Shown here piece by piece: positions 5,923 through 39,631 of a stretch of 64,000 nucleotides of DNA; within the stretch, counting starts at the first letter, position 1; each line of letters opens with the position of its first letter. The DNA comes from an uncultured Fibrobacterota bacterium (GTDB lineage: Bacteria > Fibrobacterota > Chitinivibrionia > Chitinivibrionales > FEN-1185). The stretch is taken from contig CAVWBU010000047.1 in assembly GCA_963753345.1 (NCBI GenBank), forward strand, positions 166,002-230,001, given 5' to 3'. A program made the position numbers and the translations under genes. The notes below the pieces were generated by a model. That model saw only the letters and a list, made by a program, of their open reading frames with translations, was not told where the DNA came from and did not search any database.

Positions 5923-5965
5923 TCCGGAGATGCCTGCAACAGGAGGCGTCTGAGGAGGACGGACA

Positions 5966-8712
5966 ATGATAGTCAATAACCTTCGGCTTCTCCTCGAGAA
6001 GCTTGACGAAAGCTGCACGAAAACGCTCGAATCGTCCATCGGGATGTGCGTGAACAGGGGACACTACGAGGTCCGATGGGAGCATCTGCTTGCCGAATTC
6101 CTCGACGATCCGCAGGGCGATGTGGCGGCGATCTTGGAGCGGTTCAAGGTTGACGCCGCCGCGCTCAGAAAGGCGCTCAATCGGGAGCTCGAAAACCTTC
6201 AAAGCGGCAACAGCGGCAGGCCGTCGTTTTCACCGCCGCTTATCGAGGCTTTTGAGCATGCGTGGAGCATTGGCACCTTGTGCTATGCGCTATCCTCGAT
6301 AACGCCGGGCACGTTGTTTGTTGCAATGCTGGAAAAAGGACAATTCTCATCAACGGCCTACGGTGATTTGCTTAAACCGGTGAACCTCGAAACGCTCAGG
6401 AACGAATTTCTTTCCATTGTCAAGCCGTCAACGGCACAAACCGCGGGAACGGCCCGTCGCAGAACGGCCCGCAGGTTCCGGCTCACCCGGAGGGGCGCAC
6501 GATACGCTCAGGCAGTTCTGCACAAATTTCACGGAGGAAGCAAGGGCGGGAAAGATAGACCCGGTTCTCGGCCGCGACGACGAAATTCGCCAGGCAATGG
6601 ACATCCTCAACCGCAGGAGGAAGAACAACCCCATTCTCGTCGGAGAAGCAGGCGTCGGCAAAACCGCGATCGTGGAGGGTATAGCGCTGCGCATTGCAAC
6701 CGGCGACGTTCCGGCCAATCTGGTGAACGTCGACGTGTGGGGACTCGACCTGGGGCTTCTTCAGGCCGGCGCATCCGTAAAGGGAGAATTCGAAAAGCGG
6801 CTCAAGAGCGTCATCGACGCGGTGAGGAACAATGCCGCTTCCACCATTCTCTTCATCGACGAGGCCCATACGCTGATCGGGGCTGGGGGAGCGGTCGGGC
6901 AGGGCGACGCAGCCAATCTTCTCAAGCCGGCGCTTGCCCGCGGCGACTTACGCGCGTGTGCCGCCACCACGTGGTCCGAATACCGGAAGTATTTCGAAAA
7001 AGACCCCGCCTTAGCACGAAGGTTCCAGCTTGTAAAGGTGGAGGAACCGGACGAAGAAACTTGCGCCGTGATGCTTCGAGGCGCAGCGGACGGCTTTGAG
7101 AAGCATCACGGCGTGCACATTACCCAGGCAGGTCTCGATGCGGCCGTGACCCTTTCGCACCGGTATATCTCCGGCAGGCAACTGCCCGACAAGGCCGTCG
7201 ACGTGCTTGACACCGCCTGCGCCCGCGTGAAAATGAGCCAGAGCGTGAAGCCGGCATCGCTTGACAACGCGGAACGTTCGCTGCGCAACGCGGAGCTGGA
7301 GAAGGCGAAGCTGGAGCGGGACCGGGATGCCGGGCTGCCCGTTGCCGCCGAACAGATTGACGATTGCGATAAGCGCGTTGCTTCAAAACGGGCGGAGATT
7401 TCGAGCGTGGCGGAACAGTGGGACAAGGAGAAGACTCATGGAGAAAAGATCCGACAGCTGCATGACACGTTGCTATCACTGCGGAAAAGCAATGCAGGGG
7501 TCGCCGAGGTCTCAAACGAGCTTGCGGCAATGAAGAGCGAACTTGAGGCGCTTGCCGCGATTCAGGGGGACAATCCCCTTGTGTTCCCGAATGTCTCTGC
7601 CGGCGTGTGCGGCCGGGTGGTTTCCGACTGGACAGGCATTCCGGTTGGGTCAATGGTGAAAGACGAAGCAGAGACGCTGCTTGCGCTTGAAACCAGGCTG
7701 GGAGAAAGGATTATCGGTCAGGACGGCGCGCTCGCCGCTCTCGCGAGCAGGATCCGCGCCTCGAAGACGGGCATGGGCAATCCCGATGCGCCCATCGGTG
7801 TTTTTCTGTTCACCGGCCCGTCGGGCGTTGGAAAGACCGAATGCGCGCGTGCGCTCGCCGACATCCTTTTCGGTGGTGAGAAATTCATCACCACGATCAA
7901 CATGTCGGAATACCAGGAAAAGCACACGGTCTCCCAGCTCAAGGGCTCGCCTCCGGGGTATGTGGGCTACGGCGAAGGCGGCGTTCTCACCGAAGCCGTG
8001 CGCCAGAAACCGTATTCAATCGTTCTTCTTGACGAAGTCGAAAAAGCCCACATTGAGGTAATGAACCTTTTCTATCAGGTTTTTGATAAAGGTTTCATGC
8101 GGGACGGCGAAGGCCGCGAAATAAACTTCAGAAACACCATCATCATCATGACCTCGAACCTTGCATCCGAGACCATCGTGGAACTGTGCACCCGGAAACA
8201 GGCACGGCAGCCGACCGCAGAGGAGATCATTGCCGCCGTCAGGCCGGAGCTATCGGCCCATTTTCAGCCGGCTCTGCTTGCGCGATGCACCATTGTGCCG
8301 TTCAGGCCGCTTGACAAAGAAGTAATGAAGGGCGTTGTGGCGATGAAACTCGACGTCGTTGCGCAGCGTCTCAGGCGGGTTCATGGGATCACCCTCTCGA
8401 TTTCTCCTTCGCTGGTCGACACGATTGCGGAGAGCTGCACCGCCATCGAGGCGGGGGCGCGCAATGCCGACGCAGTGATCGACGGCGCCCTCCTGCCGGG
8501 CATTTCACGGCGGCTGCTCAGCGCACATGGGCAAGGAGAACAGGGCGTACACCCGGCTCCATGTCGCGCCCATGCAAGCGGGGGAGTTTGAGATTGTGTT
8601 TCTGGAGGAAGGGGATGCCGAACCCGGAGACACAAAGAGCACGAAACGGAAAAGAAAGCAAAAGAAGGGGCAATCCGACGTGGAGCATCAGGATCAGCGA
8701 CAAGGCACTTGA
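5966..8712 (+). CDS. tssH: ClpV/TssH type VI secretion AAA+ ATPase, broken by two frameshifts (~6430, ~8520)
   Basis: RGHYEVRWEHLL N-domain; IDPVLGRDDEIRQ, GEAGVGKT, DLGLLQAGASVKGEFE, AATTWSEYRKYFEKDPAL, RYISGRQLPDKAV, GPSGVGKTE; pieces in ORFs 5966, 6417 and 8527. Confidence 0.85.
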
Positions 8713-15912: not shown

Positions 15913-16144
15913 AGCCTCTCCGGCGCTTGATGAGTGAAACCCCCTCTTTTGAGAAAATGGCTTTGTTCAATCGCATCGGTTGTTACAGATTCCTGCAGCG
16001 ACTTCGTGGCGATTCTAGTGGGCATTTTTGTGCAAATATTGTATTGTTTACGTGATGGCTCAAGTTACGATCAGGCCATTGGCGGACAATCCCAGGTAAT
16101 CTTGACAACCACCGAAAAAGCCTATGACAAAACACGGGATTCCC

Positions 16145-16936
16145 ATGAAAGTGGTCATTTTAGCCGGCGGTTATGGAACACGCCTGAGTGAAGAGACAGA
16201 TGTTAAGCCCAAACCCATGGTGGAGATCGGCGGCATGCCGATTCTGTGGCACATCATGAAGATATACTCGCATTATGGTTTTAATGAATTCGTCATTTGT
16301 CTCGGCTACAAGGGATTTGCCATCAAGCAATTTTTTAACGATTATTTTCTTCATGAGTTAGACGTGACATTCGATTTTTCAAAAGGAAATAAACGGACCA
16401 TTCACGGGCACTCCGTGGAACCGTGGAAAGTGACTCTGGTTGACACAGGATTGAATACGAACACAGGAGGGCGGGTCAAAAAGATCCAACCATATGTCAA
16501 GAACGAAACATTCATGCTCACCTACGGGGACGGGGTCGCGGACGTCAACATTCACCATCTGTTGAAATTTCACGAATCGCACGGGAAGACGGTCACCGTG
16601 ACCGCAGTACGGCCCGCAGGAAGGTTCGGTGTTATTGATATCGACGCCACGAGCAGCGTCTCCAACTTCTGGGAAAAACCCAAGAGTGAGGCTTCGTGGG
16701 TAAGCGGGGGATTCTTTGTCATGGAACCCGGCATTTTCAACTATATCAAGGATGATAAAACAATTCTCGAAAAAATGCCGCTCGTCACCGTGGCCCGCGA
16801 AGGCAAACTCAAGGCATACAAGCATGAGGGTTTCTGGCAATGCATGGACAAACTGAGCGATAAAGTGCTGCTTGAAGACCTCTGGAATTCAGGCAAGGCG
16901 CCATGGCGTCTGTGGGACAAAAAGCCCCATGATTAA
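16145..16936 (+). CDS. rfbF: Glucose-1-phosphate cytidylyltransferase (copy 1)
   Basis: MKVVILAGGYGTRLSEET..KPKPMVEIG, LTYGDG, GFWQCMD. Confidence 0.96.
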   Translation: MKVVILAGGYGTRLSEETDVKPKPMVEIGGMPILWHIMKIYSHYGFNEFVICLGYKGFAIKQFFNDYFLHELDVTFDFSKGNKRTIHGHSVEPWKVTLVDTGLNTNTGGRVKKIQPYVKNETFMLTYGDGVADVNIHHLLKFHESHGKTVTVTAVRPAGRFGVIDIDATSSVSNFWEKPKSEASWVSGGFFVMEPGIFNYIKDDKTILEKMPLVTVAREGKLKAYKHEGFWQCMDKLSDKVLLEDLWNSGKAPWRLWDKKPHD

Positions 16937-18005
16937 CAAATCGTTCTGGAACAAAAAGAGGGTTTTTGCTACTGGCCACACCGGCTTCAAGGGTTCGTGG
17001 CTGTGCATGTGGCTCCACCGTCTTGGGGCGAACGTTACCGGCTATTCCCTGAAGCCTCCCACCAAACCGAGTCTTTTCAAACTGGCCGGTGTCGAGGAGC
17101 TTGTTGATTCTCTTACCGGCGATGTGCGCGACGGCAAGAAATTGATGAAATGCTTGTCCGACGCGAAACCGGAGATCGTGTTCCATCTCGCCGCCCAGCC
17201 GCTTGTCCGCGATTCGTACAGATTGCCGGTCGATACTTATGCAGTCAATGTCATGGGCACGGTAAACGTTCTTGAAGCCATCCGGCTTTGCGGCAATTCG
17301 GTGCGGGCATTTGTCAATGTTACCACCGACAAGGTGTACGAAAACCGGGAATTCCTCCATGCCTACCGGGAAAATGAGCCTCTTGGCGGATACGATCCTT
17401 ATGCAAGCAGCAAAGCATGCTCTGAACTGGTGACCGCCGCGTATCGTAATTCATACTTTAATCCCCAAGATTTTGCAAAGCATGGAATTGCACTTGCAAC
17501 CGCCCGGGCCGGTAACGTTATCGGAGGCGGAGACTGGGCAACGGACAGGCTGGTTCCGGATTGCATAAGGGCCATTCTGGCAGGCAGAACAATCGTTGTC
17601 CGGAATCCCCACGCAATCCGTCCGTGGCAGTATGTACTGGAACCCTTGAGCGGGTATCTTTGTCTTGCGGAAAAACTGTACACGAATGGCCCAAAGTACG
17701 GTGAGAGTTGGAATTTCGGTCCCGGTGAACATGATTGCAAAACGGTTGAACATCTTGTAAAAGCCATCTGTCGGCAATGGGGACCGGAAGCGTCGTTTGC
17801 ATTTGCAAAGGCAGAGGGGCTTCATGAGGCGTCTTTCCTAAAGCTGGACTCCTCCAAGGCCCGAGCGCGGCTCGGCTGGCGTCCGCGTTGGCATATTGAA
17901 AAGGCCCTGTCGGCGACCGTTGAATGGTATAAGGCCTATTCATCCCGAAGCGATGTAAGAAACCTTTGTTTCAAACAAATTGACGAATTCGAACGGACAA
18001 GATAG
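16929..18005 (+). CDS. rfbG: CDP-glucose 4,6-dehydratase
   Basis: FW..KRVF.TGHTGFKGSWL, HLAAQPLVR, TTDKVY, YASSK, RAGNVIGGGDW. Confidence 0.96.
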   Translation: MINKSFWNKKRVFATGHTGFKGSWLCMWLHRLGANVTGYSLKPPTKPSLFKLAGVEELVDSLTGDVRDGKKLMKCLSDAKPEIVFHLAAQPLVRDSYRLPVDTYAVNVMGTVNVLEAIRLCGNSVRAFVNVTTDKVYENREFLHAYRENEPLGGYDPYASSKACSELVTAAYRNSYFNPQDFAKHGIALATARAGNVIGGGDWATDRLVPDCIRAILAGRTIVVRNPHAIRPWQYVLEPLSGYLCLAEKLYTNGPKYGESWNFGPGEHDCKTVEHLVKAICRQWGPEASFAFAKAEGLHEASFLKLDSSKARARLGWRPRWHIEKALSATVEWYKAYSSRSDVRNLCFKQIDEFERTR

Positions 18006-18015
18006 AATAGCCGAT

Positions 18016-19080
18016 ATGGATAATCCTCTTGCAGGCGATCTGGATTACGTTCTCTCCCAAACAAAAGATTTCTGGGAAGAAGTTCGGGGAAAGCGGATTT
18101 TTGTCACCGGAGGGACGGGATTTTTCGGCTGCTGGCTGCTGGAGAGTTTTTGCTGGGCGAATCGAGAACTGAATCTAAAGTCAAAAGCAATTGTGCTCAC
18201 ACGAAACCGAGAGGCATTTTGCAGGAAAGCGCCGCATTTGGCAAACGACGCATCACTGGAATTAACAACAGGGGACATTTGTTCTTTTTCTCCTCCCGGG
18301 GAGTCTGTTTCTCTTCTCGTCCATGCGTTTGGATACCCCAGTGACCCTCTTCAAAGCAACAACGCGGAGGCAAACCTGGATGTTCTTGAAAAAACAATGG
18401 GAGGTTTACGGCATACGCTGAATTTTTGCGGTAAATGTGGGATTAAAAATATCCTTTTTGTCAGCACAGGCGCCGTATATGGAACACCTCCAGCGGAAAT
18501 GACGCATATCCCCGAGGATTTTTCCTGTGGTCGGAATTCTGCGGACACAAGAAATGCGTATCACGAGATTCGTCGTATGGCCGAAATGGTGGCAGCCATG
18601 TACAGTGATCGATTTTCTCTCGAAATCAAGATAGCGAGGTGCTTTGCATTTGTCGGTCCATACATTCCCCTGCACGCCAATTTTGCAATTGGAAATTTCA
18701 TCGGCGATGCTTTGCATGGAGGTCCGATAATTGTCAAAGGCGACGGTACGCCGGTTCGGTCATATTTATACATGTCGGATCTGGCCATCTGGTTGTGGAC
18801 CATATTACTAAGAGGAAGAAGCTGCTCGCCCTATAATGTTGGGTCCGAAAACGGGATAACAATTTTGGAAGCGGCCCGGTCGGTTGCGGACTGTTGCTCT
18901 CCGCGTCCGGACATCCAGGTTCAGGGAAAAACCTTGCCGGCATTTGCACCCGACAGATACGTTCCCAATACATCTAAGGCCAGAACGGAATTGGGCCTTT
19001 CTGAATCGGTTTCTTTGGAAGAGGCATTACGAAAAACGATACAATGGCATCGAAATTATCCTTTGAAAAGCATTAATTGA
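18016..19080 (+). CDS. NAD-dependent epimerase/dehydratase/reductase (extended SDR)
   Basis: TGGTGFFG, STGAVYG, ARCFAFVGP, GDGTPVRSYLY; YxxxK appears as YHEIR. Confidence 0.88.
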   Translation: MDNPLAGDLDYVLSQTKDFWEEVRGKRIFVTGGTGFFGCWLLESFCWANRELNLKSKAIVLTRNREAFCRKAPHLANDASLELTTGDICSFSPPGESVSLLVHAFGYPSDPLQSNNAEANLDVLEKTMGGLRHTLNFCGKCGIKNILFVSTGAVYGTPPAEMTHIPEDFSCGRNSADTRNAYHEIRRMAEMVAAMYSDRFSLEIKIARCFAFVGPYIPLHANFAIGNFIGDALHGGPIIVKGDGTPVRSYLYMSDLAIWLWTILLRGRSCSPYNVGSENGITILEAARSVADCCSPRPDIQVQGKTLPAFAPDRYVPNTSKARTELGLSESVSLEEALRKTIQWHRNYPLKSIN

Positions 19081-19134
19081 GTGACGAAAAATGATCTAAG
19101 GTTTTTGCACCAGTACCTAACCATGGAGACTTAA

Positions 19135-20016
19135 ATGCAGGATGTGAAAATTGGTGGGATTCCGATTGGCGAAGGCCATCCTTGCTTTATCGTTGCCGAA
19201 ATCGGAATCAACCATAACGGTGATCTGGACTATCGCAAGAACGACTCATCGATCGTTGCTTTTGCCGCCGGATGCAATGCGGTAAAATTTCAGAAAACGG
19301 ACCATGGACATTGTGTACTCTCCAGAGGAGCTGGCCAAGCCCCGGGAAAGCCCTTTCGGCTTACCAACGGTGATCTCAAAGGCGGTCTTGAATTTGGGGA
19401 AGAAAGAATATGAGGAAATAGACCGATACTGCCGAAATTGCAGGAAATAATATGGTTTGCATCCTGCTGGGACGAGGAGTCGGTGGATTTTATTGATCGG
19501 TTCAATCCACCCTGTTACAAAATAGCTTCAGCCTGCCTCACCGATGACAATCTGCTCAGGCACATCCGCGCCAAGGGGAAGCCGGTAATTCTCTCCACGG
19601 GCATGAGCACGCTGGAGGAAATTGATCATGCGGTTGAAATGTTAGGCAAAAAAGATCTGATTATTCTGCAATCGACCAGCACATATCCGGCGGATTATAT
19701 CGAGCTGGATTTGAAAGTTATTACTGAACTGCGTAAGCGCTATGAAGTTCCCGTGGGATATTCCGGTCATGAAACCGGGATTGCAACGACCGTGGCTGCC
19801 GTAGCTCTTGGCGCTTGCATGGTGGAAAGACATATAACCTTGGAGCGTTCCATGTGGGGTTCAGACCAGGCTGCTTCATTAGGGCCCAGCGGTATCACCC
19901 GTCTGGTACGCGATATTCGCTTGGCTGAAATGTCCATGGGCACCGGGTCGAAACGGGTTTTTGAACGGGAAAAGCCCATCATCAAGAAACTGCGTCGCGT
20001 AGGAGCCCGTTCATGA
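19135..20016 (+). CDS. NeuB-like PEP-dependent ulosonate synthase, short form; several indels at 19230-19440
   Basis: IVAEIGINHNGD, AVKFQK, YKIASA, ILSTGMS, VGYSGHE, VERHITL; no C-terminal antifreeze-like domain. Confidence 0.82.
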
Positions 20017-20504
20017 TCCCGATCAAGGCTGTTGCCCTCGATTTTGATGGTGTCTTGACAGACGGACTTTTCCTCTGGGGGCCTCAGGGCGAGGAATTCA
20101 AACGATTGTCGTTCCGGGATGTGATGGGCATTTCCCTGGCGAAAAAGGCGGGCTTGGTGTTCGCATTGATTTCCGGTGAGGATAGTTCGTTGGTTGACCG
20201 TTTTGCCCGCAAAATGGGAATTGCCGATGTGTACAAGGGATGCAAGGACAAGGCTTCTGCATTGAGGAAGTTTGCCGGAGGACACGGCCTGGCCCTGGGG
20301 GACGTTTGTTTCGTAGGCGACGATGTGAACGACCTGTCTGCCTTCGCCATTGCCGGATTTGCCGCCGCGCCCTCAGATGCCCACCCCAGCGTACGGCGGG
20401 CAGCCGGGTATGTGGCGCAGGCTTGCGGCGGTCAAGGTGCGGTCCGGGAGATATTGGATTACCTGACAGGAGACGATTCTGCCGATACGCGGATGTCAAG
20501 GTGA
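20013..20504 (+). CDS. KdsC-like HAD phosphatase
   Basis: LDFDGVLTDG, ISGE, VGDDVND, GG.GAVRE. Confidence 0.9.
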   Translation: MIPIKAVALDFDGVLTDGLFLWGPQGEEFKRLSFRDVMGISLAKKAGLVFALISGEDSSLVDRFARKMGIADVYKGCKDKASALRKFAGGHGLALGDVCFVGDDVNDLSAFAIAGFAAAPSDAHPSVRRAAGYVAQACGGQGAVREILDYLTGDDSADTRMSR

Positions 20505-20508
20505 TTCC

Positions 20509-22387
20509 ATGGCCATGAAATTATCCGATTATGTATTTCAATTCCTTGCCGAAAAAGGCGTGAAGCATGTCTTTATGCTGCCCGGCGGCGGCGCCATGCA
20601 CCTGGATGATTCCTTGGGCCGATGCAAGGCACTTACCTACACCTGTTTTCTGCACGAACAAGCACTTTCCATCGCGGCGGAGGCTTATGGCCAGAACACC
20701 AATTTTCCCGGCGTGGGTTTGGTAACATCCGGTCCCGGAAGCACGAACGCCATTACCGGCGTAACGGCCGCCTTTCTCGACTCCACTCCGTGCGTGTTTA
20801 TCTCCGGTCAAGCCAAGCGGTCCGATCTGAAGGGCAGCAGCCATCACAGGCGTTGCAGCCGCCTTTCTTGACTCCACGCCATGTTTGTTTATCTCCGGTC
20901 AGGCCAAGCGGTCGGATCTGAAAGGCAATACCGGCGTTCGCCAAATGGGTTCGCAGGAGGTCGATATTGTGTCCATGGTGTCGTGCGTCACCAAATACGC
21001 AGTTACCGTGCTGGAGCCGAACAAATTCGCTACCATTTGGAAAGGGCCTGGCACAGCGCGACCAGCGGGAGAATGGGGCCGGTTTGGCTCGATATTCCCC
21101 TCGATGTCCAGGCAGCAACGATCGATGAAACGTTGCTTGCCGGTTTCACCCCGGAACCCACAAGTCGACAGCAGTGCCGGATTACAACGATCGGCGGAAC
21201 AAATTGTTCAAATGCTCAACGCCGCCGAGCGTCCGCTTATTTTGTCCGGCAATGGCGTCAAGCTTGCGGGCGCTCAGGATATGCTGATCAAATTCGCAGA
21301 AGACAATCAAATTCCCATGGTGTTAACCTGGAAGGCAATAGACTTCCTGGGCTACAACCATCCGCTTAATTTCGGCAGTCCCGGTATTATGGGATCTCGT
21401 TCTGCGAATTTTATCGTGCAGAATTGCGATTTCCTGCTTATCATCGGGAGCCGGCTTGACCCCAGCATCACCGCCTTCAACAGCGCCGGCTTTGGAAAAA
21501 ACGCAAAGAAAATCATGGTTGACATCGACGAATCGGAAATCAGAAAGATCGGCCACATCGATGTCGCTGTTGTCGCCGATGCCGGCGACTTCCTTCAAGC
21601 GCTGAATAAGAGGCAGTCAGTCTTGCAGAAGCGGGACAGGAGCACGTGGTTGGCCTATTGCCGCGGCGTCAAGAAACGCTATCCTGTGGTGCTGGACGAG
21701 TACCGTCAAAGCGCCGATTCCGTCAACCTTTACGTCTTTACCGACGAGTTGTTTCAACAGCTTTCTGCGGATGACGTAATAACCCCGGAGAGTTCCGGAG
21801 CCGCGGGCGAAGTCACCTATCAGGCAATGCGCGTTAAAAAAGGACAAAAAGTAAGAAATGCAGCTGCCCTGGGGGCCATGGGGTTCGGACTTCCGTATTC
21901 GATAGGCGCCTGCATTGCCAATAACAACCGCCGCACAATCGTTATTAATGGTGATGGCGCGTTCCAGCTCAATATTCAGGAACTGGAAACAGTGAAGCGG
22001 CTTAAGCTGCCGATCAAGATGTTTATCCTCGATAACGGCAGCTATGGAAGCATCATGGCGACGCAACGGAACATGTTTAACGGCTTTTACGTGGGCTCTG
22101 AACCCGGCAGCGGGCTGACCCTGCCCGATGTGTGCGCCGTGGCCGCAGCCTATGGCATCCGCTGCGAACGCGCCGAAAACCATCGGGAACTCCCGGACGC
22201 CATTGCGCGCACGCTCAAGGGAAACGATCCGGCATTATGTGACGTAAAAGTCACTCAGAATCACGTAACGGCGCCGAGGGTGCAGGCCATGAAGACAGCC
22301 GATGGCGGCATGGTTTCCAAGCCGCTTGAAGACATGTGGCCGTACTTGCCGACGGAAGAGATGGCGCAAGAACATGATCATCCGTAA
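20509..22387 (+). CDS. ThDP-dependent carboligase (YerE/acetolactate-synthase-like), copy 1; interrupted by a 91-bp tandem duplication and frameshifts
   Basis: PGGGAMHL, HEQA, TSGPGSTNAITG, GPVWLDIPLDVQ, GDGAFQLNIQEL, PLEDMWP. Confidence 0.85.
20749..20928 (+). repeat. Diverged tandem duplication (period 91 bp) inside the ThDP gene
   Basis: 20749-20837 and 20840-20928 encode AITGVTAAFLDSTPCVFISGQAKRSDLKG and AITGVAAAFLDSTPCLFISGQAKRSDLKG. Confidence 0.9.
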
Positions 22388-22431
22388 TATAAACCCATTA
22401 ATTCGTGACAAATTGAACTCTTAGAATAAAC

Positions 22432-23550
22432 GTGGATATGAAAATGACAAAATCGGAAATGCGGACGAACTTAAAAGGCTTGTTATCACAGAAAAGAGAT
22501 TATTCTGAAGAAATTAAGAATATTGCAAATAATTGCGAATATGTCGTTTTTTATGGATGTGGAATGATTCTTCCCAGTATTGTTGATACATGGACAAAAT
22601 ATATTGGGAGGAGAATTGATTATTGTTGTGACAGCGATTGTGAAAAATGGGGGAAGTTTTTTAAAGGAATAAAATGTCTTTCTCCCCAGGAGCTTACGGC
22701 CATTAAAGACCGTTGCGCTGTTTTTATAACGATTGGAGATTACAGGCAGATTTACCGTTCGCTTCAAGAAAACGATTTTTTTTCCGTCAATCAAATTTAT
22801 AATTTCGACATTGCCGCTGCAGAATATATCAAAGGATGTAGACAAGAGGAAATAATTGATAACCTGTGTGAGGTATATGGATATTTATCGGACGAAAAAT
22901 CCAGGAAAGTTTTTGAATCCATAATTCATAGGGTCTTTGATAAGAAAATCAATACGGCCGTGATGTCGATGGTTTGTGAAGCCGATCAATATTTTCCGCC
23001 GGATATTGTCAATTTGTCAGAAACAGAATGTTTTGTCGACATAGGTGCATTCACAGGAGATACCGTACAAGATTTTATTCGGCGCACACACGGCAGATTT
23101 GAAAGTATCCTTTGTTTTGAGGTGGACCCAATCAATTACAATGCATTAACCAAAAACGTGGCTCAAATGCCTGAACGTGACCGGATACATACATACAATG
23201 TCGGCATATGGGACAAAGAAACAGACATCACGTTTAAAATCAGCAATTCCCAGAGCGTCATTGGCATGGGAGACGGGAAAGGGCACGTCATTCCTCTTGA
23301 TGATGTTCTTACAGATGAGCGTCTTACTTTCATTAAAATGGATATTGAAGGAGCAGAACCACATGCATTGCGTGGATCTCGGAATATTATCAGGAATCAA
23401 AAACCAACTCTTGCCGTTTGCATATATCACGATCTGAAACATTTATGGGAAATTCCGCTCTTTATCAAGAAGCTTGTACCTGAATACCATATTTGCCTCA
23501 GACACCATACTCATCTGGAGTATGAAACGGTTTGCTATGCCGTTTGTTGA
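22432..23550 (+). CDS. FkbM family methyltransferase
   Basis: FVDIGAFTGDT, FEVDP.N, FIKMDIEGAE, LAVCIYH. Confidence 0.9.
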   Translation: MDMKMTKSEMRTNLKGLLSQKRDYSEEIKNIANNCEYVVFYGCGMILPSIVDTWTKYIGRRIDYCCDSDCEKWGKFFKGIKCLSPQELTAIKDRCAVFITIGDYRQIYRSLQENDFFSVNQIYNFDIAAAEYIKGCRQEEIIDNLCEVYGYLSDEKSRKVFESIIHRVFDKKINTAVMSMVCEADQYFPPDIVNLSETECFVDIGAFTGDTVQDFIRRTHGRFESILCFEVDPINYNALTKNVAQMPERDRIHTYNVGIWDKETDITFKISNSQSVIGMGDGKGHVIPLDDVLTDERLTFIKMDIEGAEPHALRGSRNIIRNQKPTLAVCIYHDLKHLWEIPLFIKKLVPEYHICLRHHTHLEYETVCYAVC

Positions 23551-23600: not shown

Positions 23601-24665
23601 ATGAATATTAATGAAGAATCAAGAAAGCCCTTGGAAAACGAAAGAAGAGAAAAACTCAGAAGAGAGAAGCCGTTGGTGTATGAGAAAATAATGGAATATG
23701 ATTCAAAAATTGCGCGGGGGGAATGTACTGCGATTATAGATTTTTGTTTTGATTACAAATGCAATTTGAAATGCGCTCATTGCAGTAATAGTGAATTCGC
23801 CAAAAAAGAAAGAGCGCTGACCATCAGTGATTTGAATAATTTTACGAAACAGGCCGATGAACTAGGCCTGGCGCAATTCAATATTTCTGGAGGCGAGCCT
23901 TTGTGTTTTGATAATTTAGACGAAATAATACGCGCCCTTGACCCTTTGCGCTTCCATATAGCAATGAGTTCCAATGGACTCTTGTTGACACGGGAAAAAG
24001 CAAAACATCTAAAAGAAATTGGGCTTGACAAGATAAGGATTAGTCTGGATAGTATTGAAGAAAACGTCCACAACAAAAGCAGAAACCAAAAAGGAGTGTA
24101 TTCAAAGGCTATTGCCGCCCTTTTTTATGCAAAGGAAGCTGGTTTGCAGGTGGGAATAAATACCGTCATAAGCCATCAGAATTGCAGAACCGAGTCAACG
24201 GAAAAACTGGCAAAATATGCAAATGACAATGGTTTCAACCTTGACGTGTTCATCGCTCGCGCCATTGGGCGATGGGAGGGCAGGGAAGATGTTTTAATCG
24301 ACGAAGAAGACGCAAAACACCTGATAGATCTCAGAAATAAATACCCGGTGGTGCACAGAGATGTGTTCCCGACCTATAATCAAAACAGAGGTTGTGGAAC
24401 AGTGAAACACATCCTGCATTTGACGAAATATGGCGATATTCTGCCATGTGCATTCATTCACATTTCTCTTGGAAACATTTTCGAAGAACCGTTGAAAGAC
24501 GTTATCAACCGGGGATTGAAAATAAAACATTTTCACGAATATAACCCAAAGTGTTTGTCCGGGGAGGATAGACTTTTTATTGGAAAATATATGACAAAAT
24601 TCTATGGAAAACCTCTCCCTGTTCCTTACTGCGAAGTGTTTACCAAAGATGATTTCTGCGAATAA
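23601..24665 (+). CDS. Radical SAM/SPASM protein
   Basis: CNLKCAHC, SGGEP, C-terminal GC...YGDILPC...GNI...C. Confidence 0.9.
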   Translation: MNINEESRKPLENERREKLRREKPLVYEKIMEYDSKIARGECTAIIDFCFDYKCNLKCAHCSNSEFAKKERALTISDLNNFTKQADELGLAQFNISGGEPLCFDNLDEIIRALDPLRFHIAMSSNGLLLTREKAKHLKEIGLDKIRISLDSIEENVHNKSRNQKGVYSKAIAALFYAKEAGLQVGINTVISHQNCRTESTEKLAKYANDNGFNLDVFIARAIGRWEGREDVLIDEEDAKHLIDLRNKYPVVHRDVFPTYNQNRGCGTVKHILHLTKYGDILPCAFIHISLGNIFEEPLKDVINRGLKIKHFHEYNPKCLSGEDRLFIGKYMTKFYGKPLPVPYCEVFTKDDFCE

Positions 24666-25725
24666 TTTGACACTGTGCTTGGGACCGGTTCCAGAAGGAC
24701 TGCCGGAAGATCTATTCGACAGTCGGATCCGTTGCTACCATTGCGGATTGGAAAGAATGCCACCCGAAAGTGTGTCAGGATTTTCTCTTTTATGCGAAGT
24801 AAACGGCGTGCATACATTTTCAAAACGCACTTTTTCGTTGTACCGTTGTGAAACGTGTGGAATGGGAGTGACATTTCCACGAATTGCTGAACGATATATT
24901 CCCATCTTGTATGAAAATCATGCTACGATACCGTTTTCAGAAGAAGAAGGGATTGTTGATAATGTTCGGAAACTTTTTTTTCTTTTGGAAGCGCGATGGT
25001 GGTTGAAGCGCATTGGCACGATTGGCAATTTTTCCGGAGATGGTGTACAGTTCCGCATACTTGATTTTGGGACAGGCAGCGGGATGAATGCAATAGCGTT
25101 TGCACGTGTTTTGAAAGACCGTGGCAGGGTGTGGGCCACAGATTTTGCAACGCAAACTCCTCCACGGCTGTTGGAGAGCACGCAGGTATCGTATATCCCT
25201 TATGAATTGTTGGAAAAATCAGATCAGAAGTTTGATTGCATACATGTGCGAAATACGCTCGAACATGCATCGAATCCGTTGTTGCTTTTGTCGCGGCTGC
25301 GAGAATCGCTTTCTACGGGAGGTTCGTTGCTCATTGAAGTTCCGAGTTTGTTTCCTGCGCTGCATCCTTTTACCATGCGCCATTTTCAAGAACTGTTTCA
25401 ATCGAATCTGCCCTACCATTACTATTTTTTTACTCCAGAATCAATGCGTGTCTTGTTGCTGCGCGCCGGTTTCTCTTCAGAGATTCGGACAATGGATATT
25501 CCCGTTATCGGGCGCATGCTGCAGGCGCGGACAGGAAGTTTATTCAAGGGGCGGAGGTATCTTCTGTTGTTCGCGATAGGGATTCTTCTGTACCCTTTGC
25601 AGTGGTTGTATGTCCGATTGGTTGGAAGTTATCCCGTGATCAGGGCCCTTGCACGGAAGATTGACGATATGGAAATCACGTCGCCTCTTCAGCAAATACA
25701 TCGTAAAAATGGTTCTGCTATATGA
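24649..25725 (+). CDS. Class I SAM-dependent methyltransferase with N-terminal CxxC pairs
   Basis: CYHC...CETC, ILDFGTGSG, LEH, IEVP. Confidence 0.82.
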   Translation: MISANNLTLCLGPVPEGLPEDLFDSRIRCYHCGLERMPPESVSGFSLLCEVNGVHTFSKRTFSLYRCETCGMGVTFPRIAERYIPILYENHATIPFSEEEGIVDNVRKLFFLLEARWWLKRIGTIGNFSGDGVQFRILDFGTGSGMNAIAFARVLKDRGRVWATDFATQTPPRLLESTQVSYIPYELLEKSDQKFDCIHVRNTLEHASNPLLLLSRLRESLSTGGSLLIEVPSLFPALHPFTMRHFQELFQSNLPYHYYFFTPESMRVLLLRAGFSSEIRTMDIPVIGRMLQARTGSLFKGRRYLLLFAIGILLYPLQWLYVRLVGSYPVIRALARKIDDMEITSPLQQIHRKNGSAI

Positions 25726-26879
25726 AAAAACCATATCTCAGTAATTCCGGTTTGTTGAATTTAAAGGAGGCGTTTTGGCTGTCGTTGGCTTCCCCCCATT
25801 TCGCTTGCACCAATTTTAGAGATAAGCTTTCAGGAAAAAAGCAGATTCCGTTTCCTCGCTTTATAGACTTGCATTTAACCGACAATTGCAACTTTGCGTG
25901 TCCGATGTGTTCAGTCGCCGAGATTAGAAAATCGCATTTAAGCGCCGGGTTTCAGCAGATGCCGATTGAAATTATTAATAACTTGGCAAAAGAAGCCAGA
26001 CCACACGGAGCTATCGTAACCCTTTACGGTGGGGAACCGCTGCTATATCAGCACCTTGATGAGGCACTGCACCTACTGAAGCACAACAATTTGCTCGCCT
26101 TTATGACAACAAATGGCCTCTTATTGGAGAAAAAAGCTGATTCTCTCATCACCGGTGGACTTCATGAAATACAAATTTCGCTTGATGGCTGGGATGAAAA
26201 TTCACAGTACAAGAGAGGTTATGTAGCTGGTTCTTTTGAGGCCATTATTAAAGGAATTGAAAAACTTCTGGTTAAAAAGGGAAAGAAGCCCTTTCCTATC
26301 ATTCGTATCGTCACAGTTGTTACTAAGAACAACTTTCATAGCCTTGACCGAATCCAACAAACGATTTATAACCTCGGCATCAACCAATGGGTTATTAACC
26401 AGTATCAGTTTGTCACAAGCGATGTTCTTAAAGACCACGAAAACTTCAAAAAGTCAACGGGTATTGGTGACTTCATTCTCGGTGATAGAATGGGAGATAC
26501 ACCTTACTTTTCTAAAGAGGAAATACTTGAATTAAAAGCCTCCTTGGATCGAGTGCGCATTCAGCAACAAAAACTTAATATGAAAATTTGTTATAATTGG
26601 GATATCGACCTAGAACGATACTATTCGTTCGCAATGCCAACAAGACATTCCGTCTGTCGGCTTCCTTTCACTCGCGTTGATATACTTGCCGACGGAAGCG
26701 CAATGCTTTGTATTGAAGGTTATAAAATCGGATCCTTGGCAACAGAAACCCTTAAAGAAGCGTGGCGCGGAGATCGCGCTCGACGTTTCCGTTCGCTATA
26801 CAAATCCCTGGGGGTTATACCGATGTGTTTCCGGTGCTGTGGAATATACTTTGGTACAATGGTATTTGAGGGCGTTTAA
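25722..26879 (+). CDS. Radical SAM/SPASM protein
   Basis: CNFACPMC, GGEPL, TNG, ISLDG, CRLPF...DG..C...CFRCC. Confidence 0.9.
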   Translation: MKKPYLSNSGLLNLKEAFWLSLASPHFACTNFRDKLSGKKQIPFPRFIDLHLTDNCNFACPMCSVAEIRKSHLSAGFQQMPIEIINNLAKEARPHGAIVTLYGGEPLLYQHLDEALHLLKHNNLLAFMTTNGLLLEKKADSLITGGLHEIQISLDGWDENSQYKRGYVAGSFEAIIKGIEKLLVKKGKKPFPIIRIVTVVTKNNFHSLDRIQQTIYNLGINQWVINQYQFVTSDVLKDHENFKKSTGIGDFILGDRMGDTPYFSKEEILELKASLDRVRIQQQKLNMKICYNWDIDLERYYSFAMPTRHSVCRLPFTRVDILADGSAMLCIEGYKIGSLATETLKEAWRGDRARRFRSLYKSLGVIPMCFRCCGIYFGTMVFEGV

Positions 26880-26912: not shown

Positions 26913-27944
26913 ATGATTAGATATACAGAATTGAAATCAACCAACCGGCAGAACCTTATTGAGGTACTACCGCTTGAAAAGCCGTTTACTGTGCTGATTG
27001 AGCCCTCAAGCTTGTGTAATTTTAAATGCATTCAGTGTTTCCAAAGCCTCCGGAAATCATCATATTTTACGAGGACCAAGATGAACATGCCGCTGGACCG
27101 GTTTCAGCGGCTCCTAGAACAATTGAAAAGCTGGGCCGGGGTAAAACATAAGGTTCTCAAGTTGAACCTTTATGGAGAGCCGCTGATGAACCCTGATTTT
27201 TGCGAGATGCTGAAACTCGCCAGGGAGGCAGCTATCGCAGAACGGATCGAAACCACCTCCAATGCCTCGCTGCTTTCCCGCGCCGTTGCCGAAAAAATGG
27301 TGGAATACCAGCTCGATTATGCTGGGATCTCCATATATGCCCCAGACCAAGAAAAACACCAGGCCATCACGGGTTCCCGGACGGATATTCGTCTCATTCA
27401 TGGAAATTTACGGGTCCTGCAGGATATTAAGAGGGCGAAGGGATCGGAAAAACCTTTTGTCAGCTGCAAAATGCTTGATTCGTACGGTCCGGAAAACAAC
27501 CGTTTCTTCTCAATGTATCAGGACGTTGCCGACGAAGTTTTCATAGATAAACCCCATGGCTGGATCAGGGCGGACAGCATCGATTTCGTGAAGAGTTATT
27601 ATAAGGGTGATGTTGCTGCCGCCCGCGATGACCTCCTGCAGAACAGTACTCAGAGAATTGCCTGTCCCATGGCCTTTACCACCATGGCGGTTCGGTGCAA
27701 CGGCGATGTATCGCCATGCTGCGTTGATTATATCGGCGGAACCAATCTTGGCAACATCGAAGAGCGTTCTATGAGCGAGATCTGGCATTCAGACCGCTGG
27801 TATGAATTTCAGAAGATCCAGCTTGAAAACCGCAAAAAGGAGAATTATTCCTGCGCACGGTGCGATATTTACAGAAGCGATCATTTCACAAAGGATACCA
27901 TTGACGGTTTTCGGGTGGAGAAATTGCGGGGGGATCATGAATGA
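26913..27944 (+). CDS. Radical SAM/SPASM protein
   Basis: CNFKCIQC, GEPLMN, CPMAF...NGDVSPCC...CARC. Confidence 0.9.
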   Translation: MIRYTELKSTNRQNLIEVLPLEKPFTVLIEPSSLCNFKCIQCFQSLRKSSYFTRTKMNMPLDRFQRLLEQLKSWAGVKHKVLKLNLYGEPLMNPDFCEMLKLAREAAIAERIETTSNASLLSRAVAEKMVEYQLDYAGISIYAPDQEKHQAITGSRTDIRLIHGNLRVLQDIKRAKGSEKPFVSCKMLDSYGPENNRFFSMYQDVADEVFIDKPHGWIRADSIDFVKSYYKGDVAAARDDLLQNSTQRIACPMAFTTMAVRCNGDVSPCCVDYIGGTNLGNIEERSMSEIWHSDRWYEFQKIQLENRKKENYSCARCDIYRSDHFTKDTIDGFRVEKLRGDHE

Positions 27945-28878
27945 CCAGAAATTAATTAGCGTCGTTACAGGTTGTCTCAACGAGGAGGGAAACCTCCAGG
28001 TTTTCTATAATCGCGTGAAAAAGGTGTTGGCCCAATTCCCTCAGTACCGACACGAGATAATTATTGCGGACAATTGTTCCACGGACGGCAGCCGAAAAAT
28101 CCTGCGGCGTATCGCTGCTCAGGACAAGAATTTCAGGGTTATTATGAATTCCAGGAATTTTGGGCCCATCCGATCAGGTTACAACGCTTTTTTACAGGCC
28201 AACGGTGATGCAGTGGTGCTGATGAGCGCAGATCTTCAGGATCCACCGGAGCTGATTGCCGAATTTATTCAGAAATGGGAACAAGGTTTTCAGGTGGTTT
28301 GCGGGGTACGAAGCGGGAGCGAGGGTAATCTGGTAATGTCATTTCTTCGCCGAAGCTACTACCGCTGGCTGGCGAGATTTTCCGACACAGATTATATCAT
28401 CCAAAACTTTACCGGGTTCGGCCTGTATAGTCGAAAAGTCATGGAGGCCCTGAAACGATTTCCTGATCCGGAGCCGTACTTTCGCGGGTTTATCTCGGAA
28501 GTTGGATTTCCTCGGGCCGAAGCAAGCTTTGTCCAGCCGAAACGAAAATACGGCAGATCAAAACATACCTTTTTTTCTCTCTACGACGTAGCAATGACAG
28601 GGTTCGTGAATCATTCCAAGCTGCCGCTGAGGATGGCGACGTTTTGCGGATTTTGCTTGGCTGGTGTCAGTCTGGTCATTGCACTGGGCTATTTCATCTA
28701 CAAATTGGTGTTCTGGGAAACTTTTGAGTTAGGGCTGGCACCAATAGTGATCGGACTATTCTTCTTCTCGGCGGTGCAGCTGATCTTCATAGGCATTATC
28801 GGTGAATACATCGGTGCAATTCTGACTCAGGTGAAAAACCGTCCGCTCGCTATTGAAGAAGAACGAATTAATTTCTGA
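27937..28878 (+). CDS. GT2 polyprenol-phosphate glycosyltransferase (GtrB/ArnC-like)
   Basis: NEE.N, DNCSTDGS, RNFG, ADLQDPPE, two C-terminal TMs, IGEYIG. Confidence 0.92.
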   Translation: MNDQKLISVVTGCLNEEGNLQVFYNRVKKVLAQFPQYRHEIIIADNCSTDGSRKILRRIAAQDKNFRVIMNSRNFGPIRSGYNAFLQANGDAVVLMSADLQDPPELIAEFIQKWEQGFQVVCGVRSGSEGNLVMSFLRRSYYRWLARFSDTDYIIQNFTGFGLYSRKVMEALKRFPDPEPYFRGFISEVGFPRAEASFVQPKRKYGRSKHTFFSLYDVAMTGFVNHSKLPLRMATFCGFCLAGVSLVIALGYFIYKLVFWETFELGLAPIVIGLFFFSAVQLIFIGIIGEYIGAILTQVKNRPLAIEEERINF

Positions 28879-28888
28879 GGGCTCTAGT

Positions 28889-30032
28889 ATGACGATTAGC
28901 AACTGCAGGGTTTGCGGGCAAGCGTTTTTCGGGGCACCGTTATTGCATTATGAGGATATGCCGAAGGCGGCCCAAAACTTTCCTAACGCAGCTGCCCTGA
29001 AAAACGAGACGGGCGTTGACCTAACCGTTTGTCAATGTTCGGGTTGCGGTTTGGTGCAATTGAGCAACGACCCTGTACCCTACTTCCGCGAAGTGATCCG
29101 GGCCGTGGCTTTTTCCAAGGTAGTCAAGGAGTTCAAGACCAGGCAATTCGCTGATTTTCTCGAAAAGTATTCTCTCCTTGGGAAAAAGGTCATCGAAATT
29201 GGGTGCGGCCGCGGAGAATTCCTTACCCTGATGCAGTCCTTGGACGTCGCAGCTTTTGGTTTAGAGTATTCAGCCGCGTCGGTTGCCGCATGTGTGAAGA
29301 ACGGGCTCAACGTGTCGAGGGGTTATTTTGATAAAGACACGACGATGCTGGATAACGGGCCTTTTGATGCCTTTTTGCTGTTGATGTTTCTTGAGCATAT
29401 GCCTGACCCCAATTTTGCGCTTAAAGGGATTTGTAACAATCTGAAGGACGGAGCTGTGGGTATTATCGAGGTTCCGAATTTTGACATGATCGTTGCGGAA
29501 GAAGCTGTTTTCCGAATTTATCGGCGATCACCTTCTCTATTTTTCAAAAGGGACTTTGCAAAACACGTTGAATTTAAACGGGTTTGATGTCTTGGAATGC
29601 GCTGAAATCCGCGACGATTATGTGCTATCCGCCACAGTCGCAAAAGAAAGAGAATGGACGTATCTGGTCTCTTGAAAAATCAAAGAAAGATTCACGACGA
29701 AATCCTTGATTTTATAGGAAGGTTCGAACGAAAGAAGGTTGCAGTTTGGGGCGCCGGCCATCAGGCTTTGGCTATCATCGCCATGACGAAAATAGCCCGG
29801 GAAATCAGGTATGTGGTGGACTCTGCAACCTTCAAGCAGGGCAAATTTACACCAGCTTCTCATATGCCCATTGTTGCGCCCGATGCTTTGCACTCGGATC
29901 CCGTAGATGCTGTCATTGTCATGGCGGCAAGCTATTCCGACGAGGTCGCCAGCATTCTGCGGCAAAAATATGGCAAAATAATCAAGTATCTCGATATTAA
30001 GGGATTTCGGACTGGAGTTCGTAGGAAATTAG
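28889..30032 (+). CDS. Sugar C-methyltransferase-like SAM methyltransferase, frameshifted (~29495, ~29645, ~29980)
   Basis: CRVC...CSGCGLVQ, EIGCGRG, LEH, EVPN, WGAGHQ, KQGKFTP, C-terminal ILRDFGLEFVGN*. Confidence 0.8.
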
Positions 30033-30049
30033 GATCAATGTGCGACTTC

Positions 30050-30534
30050 ATGTTCCGGCAAATTCGCAAAGCCCTGAAAAATAAAATAGTTCGTTTTTTT
30101 CTTGTCAGCGGCCTCAATACCGCCTTTGGATACGGTTTTTTTCTTTATTGATATTTATCGGTTTGCATTATGCAATTGCCGGGTTGGTTACCACAATTCT
30201 TGGAATACTTTTCAATTTCAAGACAACAGGGATGCTTGTCTTTGGCAACAACAAGAACAAGCTTATTCTTAAATTCATTGGAGTTTATGGAATTAATTAT
30301 GCGGTTGGAATGTTATTGCTCACGGTCCTTGAGCGTTCCGGAGTGGATGCATTGCTAAGCGTAACACTATTTCAAATTGTCCACTACTCGTTGCTCAAGA
30401 ACCCGAGAATCAATGCTTGCATTGGTGCAACAATACTTGCAATACCCATGGGCCTGTTCGCATATTTTCTCAATCATCGTTTTGTTTTTGCCAGGCCGAA
30501 GTTGCTTCCTGTGCAAGACACAAAAGAAAGTTGA
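30050..30534 (+). CDS. GtrA family flippase-like protein, frameshift in poly-T at ~30140
   Basis: RFFLVSGLNTAFGY...ILFNF.T...VF...KFI.VY...LNHRFVF. Confidence 0.8.
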
Positions 30535-30537
30535 TGC

Positions 30538-31855: not shown

Positions 31856-31950
31856 CACCCCCGATCGTCATGCGAAGAAGAAAAGCGGGCAGTGTCATGT
31901 TGACCGCAGAATGACGAAAAGGTCTCTTGTACAAGAAGGCCGCAGATCAA

Positions 31951-37163: not shown

Positions 37164-37386
37164 CAGGTGATAAAGATAGATGGTGAATCGCCCGGCGGGC
37201 AATGGTCCCGATCTTACAGGAACGAGACAGGACTCGTGCAGGCTTAAGTGCGTGGGTGAGCGAGCATAAATAGAAAATCAAATCCAAAAAAGAGCGGATG
37301 CCAAATCAGCTGAGGAGCCCGAAGGGCTTAGGATTCCACTGCGACGACGCAGAGGCGCCGATCACCCCCAACAAAGGAGCAATGCA

Positions 37387-37659: not shown

Positions 37660-37917
37660 CGCGGAGAGGTACCGGATACTGTTGATGATTTGCTAGGACC
37701 GGTGTCGGGTTGCAAAATTTCCTGCACAAAAATCCATCATTTTATCATGGTGAGTTGCCTGCGTCCGGCATTTTCGCCGAACTTTGAAGCTTGTCATCAC
37801 GCAAGTTTCCACGTTTGTTGACGGCAAGAACGGCGCCTGTGCTATTTTCATCCGGTGGCGGCCGGACTTCCTGCCCACAATCCTATGTGAGAATGCACGC
37901 CCCGGTGTCCCACACCC

Positions 37918-39573: not shown

Positions 39574-39631
39574 GCTTTTTTCCAGACGGTATTCCACCAA
39601 TGATGACCCTGAAAATCCGATCAATGATCTG

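Follow-up and report, generated by a model that had tools for sequence, protein, structure and literature searches.

The window examined here is a 64,000-nucleotide stretch of DNA from an uncultured Fibrobacterota bacterium, known from a metagenome-assembled genome of 4.5 Mb (94% complete, 55 contigs) in which the window sits in a 230-kb contig. Profile matches to the open reading frames (ORFs) of the window delimit a sugar operon of sixteen plus-strand genes between 16.1 and 34.5 kb, referred to below as cluster 1; a second sugar cluster at 51364-63933 of the same window is referred to as cluster 2. Cluster 1 combines genes for a cytidine diphosphate (CDP)-activated deoxysugar with a NeuB-like synthase, a KdsC-like phosphatase and a thiamine diphosphate (ThDP) enzyme, and we ask here whether the product of the synthase and phosphatase may serve as the donor of the ThDP enzyme. 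The genes that bear on this question are the following.

16124-16936, plus strand: rfbF, glucose-1-phosphate cytidylyltransferase, giving CDP-glucose (TIGR02623, 394.9 bits against a cut-off of 300.25; PF00483).
16872-18005, plus strand: rfbG, CDP-glucose 4,6-dehydratase (TIGR02622, 498.3 bits against a cut-off of 278.45).
17980-19080, plus strand: extended short-chain dehydrogenase/reductase (SDR), likely start ATG 18016 (PF01370).
19135-20016, plus strand: NeuB-like ulosonate(-phosphate) synthase without a SAF domain, broken as assembled (PF03102).
20013-20504, plus strand: phosphatase of the KdsC/YrbI family of haloacid dehalogenase (HAD) enzymes, intact (subfamily model TIGR01670, 117.4 against a cut-off of 106.95).
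20509-22387, plus strand: YerE-like ThDP carboligase with domains like those of acetohydroxyacid synthase (AHAS), broken as assembled (TPP_N, TPP_M, TPP_C).
30536-31855 (main ORF 30677-31855), plus strand: rfbH, CDP-6-deoxy-D-xylo-4-hexulose 3-dehydrase (E1) (NF011936, 649 against 423, matched from profile position 50).

The first-pass annotation of this DNA had described rfbF, rfbG, an SDR, a NeuB-like synthase, a KdsC-like phosphatase and a ThDP enzyme in series, with rfbH downstream. The content, order and coordinates of these genes are confirmed by the profile matches, with the qualification that neither the NeuB-like nor the ThDP gene forms an intact ORF as assembled.

The NeuB-like gene matches PF03102 with 227.6 bits over profile positions 4-241 when read through one TGA, and a Pfam scan detected no SAF domain (PF08666) in it. 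The gene had been called short from the outset, and the shortness is genuine: the best 120 of 8000 candidate relatives (all with E<1e-10) are nearly all 290-295 residues long and carry PF03102 only, so the small size is a trait of this large and tightly conserved family and not the result of the break. Two intact homologues, P0003 and the protein of the Holophagales locus L065 (numbers preceded by L denote the genome loci carrying a short NeuB that were used for the context counts below), fall under the cut-offs of the NeuB equivalog TIGR03569 (237.7 and 246.0, respectively, against 399.65) and of the PseI equivalog TIGR03586 (203.7 and 207.4 against 340.25). The nearest solved structure, 6ncs (142 bits), is a SAF-less protein of 290 residues that its depositors named a sialic acid synthetase.

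The phosphatase aligns without a frameshift to its L065 orthologue. Although a member of the TIGR01670 subfamily by score, it stays below the KdsC equivalog NF007019 (116.1 against 208) and the model NF058599 for the phosphatase of 2-keto-3-deoxynononate 9-phosphate (KDN-9-P; 109.2 against 180); the L065 orthologue scores 133.4 and 113.8 with the same two models. Its best solved relatives are KdsC, at 99.6 bits, and a phosphatase of the KDN-9-P type, at 82 bits. A phosphatase of the KdsC type argues for a terminal phosphate on the NeuB product, as in 3-deoxy-octulosonate 8-phosphate (Kdo-8-P) or KDN-9-P.

In the phosphorylated routes to KDN and sialic acid, of which Bacteroides thetaiotaomicron provides an example, a synthase of KDN-9-P or N-acetylneuraminate 9-phosphate is followed by a KdsC-type phosphatase and a cytidine monophosphate (CMP)-synthetase. 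The succession of a NeuB-family synthase and a C0-type HAD phosphatase is that of cluster 1. Unlike those routes, however, cluster 1 has no CMP-synthetase partner, its NeuB has no SAF domain, and both NeuB and the phosphatase score under the equivalog cut-offs. The scanned ORFs of the window yielded no PF02348 gene (NeuA/KdsB family), in agreement with the earlier statement that NeuA and KdsB are missing from it. A PF02348 search of the whole genome gave a single match, which lies on another contig and is KdsB (TIGR00466, 191.8 against 155.2); the same search found no other, dedicated cytidylyltransferase.

The ThDP enzyme has the complete three-domain layout TPP_N/TPP_M/TPP_C, though split over two ORFs, and an intact orthologue of 603 residues is encoded in L065. 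A ThDP-binding GDG..N motif is present in both ThDP proteins of the window, those of cluster 1 and cluster 2, with the catalytic glutamate of an HEQ motif in the N-terminal part. The best match in the Protein Data Bank is entry 8rph, with 261.6 bits for the cluster 1 fragment, 398.7 for the cluster 2 protein and 370.5 for the L065 protein; the corresponding scores with Escherichia coli AHAS I are 160.3, 221.2 and 244.6. The second-ranked structure is 5ahk, which we take to be PpYerE. The L065 protein also falls under the cut-off of the AHAS model TIGR00118 (352.5 against 538.35). By sequence, the ThDP enzymes of the window are closer to YerE-like carboligases than to AHAS, and carboligation activity is predicted for them. 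Entry 8rph is JanthE, described in an excerpt of PMC12188165 as a YerE-like carboligase that accepts ketones.

For the gene context of the short NeuB family, an alignment of 20 close homologues chosen from the 120 was used to search a species-representative genome collection. At least 596 loci with a short NeuB were found, and the best 80 were used for the context counts. Context labels came from the annotated representatives of clusters built from every ORF within 7-8 kb. Of the 80 loci, 50 had a ThDP gene and 17 a CTP_transf_3 gene; one locus had both, and the 14 with neither include several on short contigs. A count by tblastn with the window proteins as queries (at least 50% query coverage, within 6 kb of NeuB) gave, among the 80 loci, the KdsC-like phosphatase in 72, the ThDP enzyme in 46-49, rfbF in 28, rfbG in 26, rfbH in 29, the extended SDR in 33, an FkbM methyltransferase in 23 and a family 2 glycosyltransferase (GT2) in 17; the YfhO protein of cluster 1 was found in none. 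In 43 of the 50 ThDP loci, the NeuB, KdsC and ThDP genes share one strand in collinear order. Full flanks were available for 33 ThDP loci; 32 of these have KdsC, 22 have one or more of rfbF, rfbG and rfbH, and 1 has CTP_transf_3. None of the 17 CTP-context loci has rfbF, rfbG or rfbH. A GT2 gene occurs in 22 and a GtrA gene in 10 of the 50 ThDP loci, which span 11 named phyla. When 61 related genomes were searched with the DNA of positions 19100-22400, no close copy of the cluster was found, only short pieces of the ThDP gene (67-85% identical) in 3 genomes besides the window's own.

A quick maximum likelihood tree was built from the 80 NeuB proteins and the window fragment, with six paralogues that carry a SAF domain as outgroup. 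It contains a ThDP-context clade of 58 rows (Shimodaira-Hasegawa-like approximate likelihood ratio test, SH-aLRT, 91) and a CTP-context clade of 18 rows (SH-aLRT 83), with one label change between the two contexts. The window NeuB falls in the ThDP clade, beside loci from Holophagales. The co-occurrence of this NeuB clade with ThDP or with NeuA genes, put forward in the first-pass annotation as a test of the donor role, thus comes out on the side of the ThDP enzyme.

The same data bear on a reading in which cluster 1 houses two routes in one operon. The ulosonate made by NeuB and the phosphatase would then be activated by KdsB or another enzyme as a Kdo- or KDN-like residue, and the ThDP enzyme would use pyruvate or another small 2-oxoacid for a short branch of the yersiniose type. 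YerE itself uses pyruvate (PMC9306805), the genome does have KdsB, and the sister NeuB clade, 65-75% identical, lies beside CTP_transf_3 genes, which marks the product in other lineages as a genuine ulosonate open to activation. Five loci, moreover, have NeuB-(KdsC)-GT2 and no adjacent ThDP gene. However, ThDP and CTP_transf_3 genes come together in just one of the 80 loci, the NeuB-KdsC-ThDP order is largely kept, and KdsB is the only gene of its family in the genome. In addition, four of the five genomes with the "orphan" loci, among them that of the cultured Acidocella aquatica NBRC 112502 (L019), encode a YerE-like homologue at some other place (43-48% identity, 503-567 bits; AHAS-level matches in these genomes are at about 30% and 200-260 bits), and such a homologue is found elsewhere in one of five CTP-context genomes. 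We consider two separate routes unlikely.

A further alternative is that the ThDP enzyme is a simple ulosonate decarboxylase, which would convert the NeuB product to a 2-deoxy-aldose destined for a glycan by some other way, with no C-branching. Decarboxylases that depend on ThDP do exist in the same superfamily, as stated in an excerpt of a 2025 review (PMC12247030). The nearest characterised relatives of the window enzyme are nevertheless ketone-accepting YerE-like carboligases, the cassette is linked to rfbF, rfbG and rfbH, the makers of a known ketone acceptor, and the 80 loci contain no conserved kinase or nucleotidyltransferase that could serve such an aldose. This alternative seems to us very improbable indeed.

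On the acceptor side, rfbF, rfbG and rfbH of cluster 1 all exceed their equivalog cut-offs, showing that genes for CDP-4-keto-3,6-dideoxyglucose are present. The extended SDR of cluster 1 is 37% identical to that of cluster 2 (58314-59375). An extended SDR is found in 29 of the 50 ThDP loci and some reductase in 42, and we infer that the cluster 1 protein is a candidate reductase of the branch keto group, in the role of YerF or ErwF.

The principle of such a pathway is known. Steitz et al. (2022) reported that ErwE, MMAR_2332 and MyGE take gamma-hydroxylated C4-C8 2-oxoacids as donors (PMC9306805), which bears out the background of the first-pass annotation, namely that YerE-like enzymes attach longer acyl branches. 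In that work dihydro-2H-pyran-3(4H)-one served as a surrogate acceptor. Their unifying scheme for erwiniose, caryophyllose and "gastriose" has a pyruvate aldolase form a 3-deoxy-2-oxoacid, which the ThDP enzyme adds to CDP-4-keto-3,6-dideoxyglucose before a reductase completes the branch; a Rhodopseudomonas palustris cluster with a methyltransferase is described in the same work (PMC9306805). An excerpt of the 2025 review (PMC12247030) adds JanthE and two more sugars, and cites an in-silico survey by Krug et al. (2024, Angew. Chem. e202403535) with more than 200 YerE-like clusters.

Erwiniose synthesis in Pectobacterium atrosepticum (ErwE, ThDP enzyme; ErwF, reductase; ErwI, aldolase; ErwJ, acetaldehyde dehydrogenase) resembles what is proposed for cluster 1 in that both pair genes for CDP-4-keto-3,6-dideoxyglucose with a YerE-like ThDP enzyme and a reductase, and in that the donor is a 3-deoxy (gamma-hydroxy) 2-oxoacid made within the cluster. 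Unlike the erwiniose cluster, cluster 1 has no aldolase and no dehydrogenase; a NeuB-type phosphoenolpyruvate (PEP)-dependent synthase and a KdsC-type phosphatase would supply the donor instead. Supply of this kind implies a phosphorylated aldose as substrate and a chain that is longer and more hydroxylated than C5. Among the 80 NeuB loci none contains genes for a DmpG/DmpF-type aldolase, which fits NeuB and KdsC having taken the place of the aldolase. No aldolase was found in cluster 1 or among the annotated conserved neighbour clusters, where HpcH-type aldolases were not probed directly.

Caryophyllose (Mycobacterium marinum MMAR_2331, aldolase; MMAR_2332, ThDP enzyme; MMAR_2333, glycosyltransferase) and "gastriose" (Mycobacterium gastri MyGE/MygI/MygF) could be compared by description only. 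Both have a long polyhydroxy branch (C6, C7) with a deoxy position beside the branch carbinol, as would be expected from a 3-deoxy-2-ulosonate donor. Both are methylated sugars, gastriose bearing O-methyl groups, and cluster 1 has methyltransferases. Their donors come from HpcH-type pyruvate aldolases, whereas that of cluster 1 would come from NeuB and KdsC. Yersiniose A of Yersinia pseudotuberculosis (YerE/YerF) shares with cluster 1 the acceptor pathway (ddhA-C, equivalent to rfbF/G/H) and the class of branching enzyme; its pyruvate donor needs no supply genes, whereas the cluster 1 operon includes a dedicated two-gene supply module.

In the full-text literature that was searched, NeuB is mentioned beside neither YerE, branched sugars nor thiamine diphosphate, the survey of Krug et al. 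lying outside the search. The sugar can be called possibly new with regard to its supply module of NeuB and phosphatase and the branch length that follows from it, but not with regard to the principle, which is published (PMC9306805). With the exception of Krug et al. (2024), the supply module is not in print in the literature searched.

On balance, we favour the reading in which cluster 1 directs the synthesis and export of a CDP-activated 3,6-dideoxyhexose with a long polyhydroxyalkyl branch at C4. RfbF, RfbG and RfbH, together with an E3 reductase encoded elsewhere, would produce CDP-4-keto-3,6-dideoxy-D-glucose. The SAF-less NeuB would condense PEP with an aldose phosphate to a 3-deoxy-2-ulosonate phosphate, from which the KdsC-family phosphatase would strip the phosphate, leaving the free 3-deoxy-2-ulosonate as donor for the ThDP enzyme. 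The latter would decarboxylate the ulosonate and add the acyl carbanion to the C4 keto group, a reaction of the type demonstrated for ErwE, MMAR_2332 and MyGE, with NeuB and the phosphatase replacing the pyruvate aldolase. The CH2 beside the branch carbinol of the product would derive from C3 of the ulosonate, and the extended SDR would reduce the branch keto group. The FkbM protein, the other methyltransferases and three radical S-adenosylmethionine (SAM)/SPASM proteins would tailor the sugar. Its loading on polyprenyl phosphate, its flipping and its attachment outside the membrane would be the work of the GT2, GtrA and YfhO proteins.

The donor role proposed in the first-pass annotation gains support from the exclusivity of ThDP and CTP contexts, the NeuB tree, JanthE as nearest structure and KdsB as the sole gene of the CMP-transferase family. 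Several points weigh against it. The role assigned to the NeuB product is derived from gene neighbourhood and from exclusivity with CMP-transferase genes. Cluster 1 has no gene for an E3 reductase (RfbI/AscD), an FNR-like reductase sitting in cluster 2, and rfbF, rfbG and rfbH are all absent nearby in 11 of the 33 full-flank ThDP loci. The 80 loci lean towards the clade of the window NeuB, since they are the best-scoring of at least 596 and the query was built from 20 picked close homologues; nor are the ThDP loci independent, 33 of the 50 being from Acidobacteriota. Both key branches of the tree have SH-aLRT values below 95 and come from a quick method. Finally, GT2 enzymes of this type are known to act on UDP-sugars and are not known to use CDP-sugars.

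Of the 50 ThDP loci, 16 encode a GmhA-like SIS_2 isomerase (for example L018, L045, L063, L072, L075 and L077), its gene frequently lying just upstream of NeuB, which hints at a heptose 7-phosphate as NeuB substrate in those lineages. The window cluster has no GmhA-like SIS_2 gene. As a speculation, to which we give rather less credence than to the branched sugar itself, NeuB may make an acid of the size of a KDN-like nonulosonate (from a hexose 6-phosphate), or a longer one with the GmhA-like isomerase, and this acid may be grafted whole to give a branched monosaccharide of at least 14 carbons, C- and O-methylated by the radical SAM proteins, the C-methyltransferase and FkbM; the sugar might then be a common envelope component of peat and soil Acidobacteriota and of at least 10 other phyla. 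If true, a unit of at least 14 carbons would be the largest natural sugar unit known. Should the favoured reading of cluster 1 hold, very large branched sugars would be expected at the cell surface of bacteria that abound in soil and peat, and synthases of the sialic acid type would have a second metabolic fate, in which the product becomes a carbon side chain and not a CMP-activated residue. The donor scope of YerE-like enzymes would widen to C8-C10 polyols, of interest for chiral tertiary alcohols, and a systematic misannotation of these proteins as "N-acetylneuraminate synthase" and "acetolactate synthase" would be corrected.

The remaining genes of cluster 1, which include those proposed for tailoring and export, are the following.

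22432-23550, plus strand: FkbM-family methyltransferase (PF05050, TIGR01444), the same family being found in 27 of the 50 ThDP-context loci.
23601-24665, plus strand: first radical SAM/SPASM protein, tailoring (PF04055, PF13186), with orthologues in L065 (48%) and L044 (55%).
24604-25725, plus strand: class I SAM-dependent methyltransferase (PF13489).
25722-26879, plus strand: second radical SAM/SPASM protein (PF04055, PF13186).
26913-27944, plus strand: third radical SAM/SPASM protein (PF13186, PF04055), 66% identical to its L065 orthologue, no frameshift.
27802-28878, plus strand: GT2 polyprenyl-phosphate glycosyltransferase, PgfS/ArnC/GtrB-like (PF00535; NF047588, 175.9 bits, under its cut-off).
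28853-30062, plus strand: sugar C-methyltransferase, broken as assembled (Methyltransf_13/23/14 domains), with an intact 393-residue orthologue in L065.
30050-30534, plus strand: GtrA-family flippase, frameshifted as assembled (PF04138 from profile position 23).
31927-34467, plus strand: YfhO-family membrane glycosyltransferase (PF09586, 221 bits; weak PgfM matches).

The FkbM protein probably O-methylates the sugar, and the YfhO protein is a candidate for extracytoplasmic transfer from the lipid carrier. The trio of a GtrB-like GT2, GtrA and a YfhO/PgfM-type protein that closes cluster 1 is that of three-component extracytoplasmic glycosylation, which uses a UDP-sugar, whereas the donor in cluster 1 would be a CDP-sugar.

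Cluster 2, also on the plus strand, encodes an FNR-like reductase, paralogues of rfbH (57% identical) and rfbF (63%), an intact YerE-like ThDP enzyme of 614 residues, an acetylating acetaldehyde dehydrogenase (TIGR03215, 371.7 against 282) and a 4-hydroxy-2-oxovalerate aldolase (TIGR03217, 383.6 against 286), as well as an extended SDR, an FkbM protein, a Wzx-like flippase, a GT2 and an epimerase split over 59417-59758 and 59739-60479. A YerE-like ThDP enzyme together with an aldolase and dehydrogenase of the DmpG/DmpF type is the erwiniose layout (PMC9306805). The genome holds an aldolase-fed and a NeuB-fed version side by side, 30 kb apart.

Five of the sixteen genes of cluster 1 are broken as assembled: NeuB, ThDP, C-methyltransferase, GtrA and rfbH. 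Frameshift-aware alignment of the NeuB gene with intact homologues of 291 residues located three compensated frameshift pairs, near 19240/19254, 19294/19361 and 19402/19433. The ORFs 19135-19413 and 19438-20016 are in one frame with a TGA between them (19411-19413). After frame correction, 252 of 290 residues are identical to P0003, and the middle segment under the six shifts has 55-57 of 65 residues (85-88%) identical to close homologues, in a comparison that took in 9 proteins. Recoding of the in-frame TGA is rejected because this codon belongs to a stretch read out of frame, flanked by two shifts that compensate each other. A mosaic or recombinant origin of the gene is not needed, since the corrected middle segment matches the remainder in conservation. 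In the ThDP gene, a tandem duplication with a period of 91 nucleotides (copies 20749-20836 and 20840-20927, 85% identical) separates the ORFs 20509-20871 and 20885-22387, and about 46 conserved codons are out of frame through another compensated pair near 21020/21157. In the C-methyltransferase gene, two compensating shifts near 29492/29640 come with two in-frame stops, and another shift lies near 29993; a three-frame reading places the GtrA frameshift near 30145, and the first 33 or so codons of rfbH are in another frame, with the shift near 30604. No shift was found by frameshift-aware alignment in the KdsC-like, third radical SAM and FkbM genes.

We think it quite probable that the frameshifts and the 91-nucleotide duplication are errors of assembly or consensus and not decay. 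This is argued by the mostly compensated indel pairs over conserved coding sequence and by related peat contigs that do not have the duplication. The paired indels lie 14-148 nucleotides apart, and several events fall at homopolymer runs. Compensated pairs are the pattern of consensus building on noisy or mixed reads and not of neutral decay. In the related contigs, from peat metagenomes (one study, 3 runs), position 20764 is followed directly by 20856, exactly the 91 nucleotides being skipped, and relative to the window these contigs have +1 at 21021 and -1 at 21164; being relatives at 90-96% identity, with no cover of 19304-19387, they are no arbiter between error and mutation. One such contig is 96.6% identical to the window over 18800-19295 (17 of 496 positions differ) and 89.5% over 19440-20335 (94 of 896), and between 19295 and 19440 it has 141 unlike letters in place of 144 nucleotides of the window. 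The locus is a patchwork between strains, which may explain a poor consensus. Elsewhere in the window, one frameshift near 6440-6520 breaks the housekeeping gene clpB (5954-8588, plus strand) into two ORFs, one with Clp_N (5954-7096) and the other with AAA (6384-8588). This points to base-level errors in the contig, and the cluster 2 epimerase is likewise frameshifted.

Alternatively, cluster 1 could be a pseudogene operon, with a real duplication and real frameshifts, in which case the long-branched sugar would have been lost and the intact erwiniose-type cluster 30 kb downstream, whose ThDP gene is unbroken, might substitute. The breaks are denser in cluster 1 than in the rest of the window, where few are seen, and rpoB and rpoC are intact, which leaves room for real decay. 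The source reads are also unseen, the best sequencing run containing at most 0.46 of the sampled words. Decay is nonetheless at odds with the compensated pairs, with the conservation of the coding sequence under the six NeuB shifts, with the frameshift in clpB, with the many events at homopolymers and with the absence of the duplication from related strains, and we regard it as an improbable explanation. In this genome, the sequence of the locus should be regarded as unreliable at the level of single bases.

Loci of the CTP-context sister clade (L017, L022, L030, L034, L041, L054, L079 and 10 others) have one or two CTP_transf_3 genes beside NeuB. Of these 17 loci, 12 also have an AP_endonuc_2 TIM-barrel protein, 11 a Gfo/Idh/MocA oxidoreductase, 14 short-chain dehydrogenases and 9 a GmhA-like SIS_2 protein. 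This clade, mostly from Chloroflexota, looks like an uncharacterised CMP-ulosonate pathway. In the genome of L052 (Verrucomicrobiae), a KdsB-like PF02348 match (G092:C1:1000991-1001629) is read through four TGA codons; the gene may be broken or frameshifted, or the codons may be recoded.

Between the two sugar clusters of the window, two or three toxin-antitoxin-like pairs of the MNT-HepT type (nucleotidyltransferase/HEPN) lie on the plus strand at 46562-47399 and 49594-51138. The region directly after cluster 1 (34479-44062) encodes a Laminin_G_3 protein of 933 residues (minus strand), a PMT_2 glycosyltransferase (37891-39570) and, at 39956-44062 on the minus strand, two large TPR proteins, one of which includes a PMT_2 part. 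These proteins are possible acceptors or partners of envelope glycosylation.

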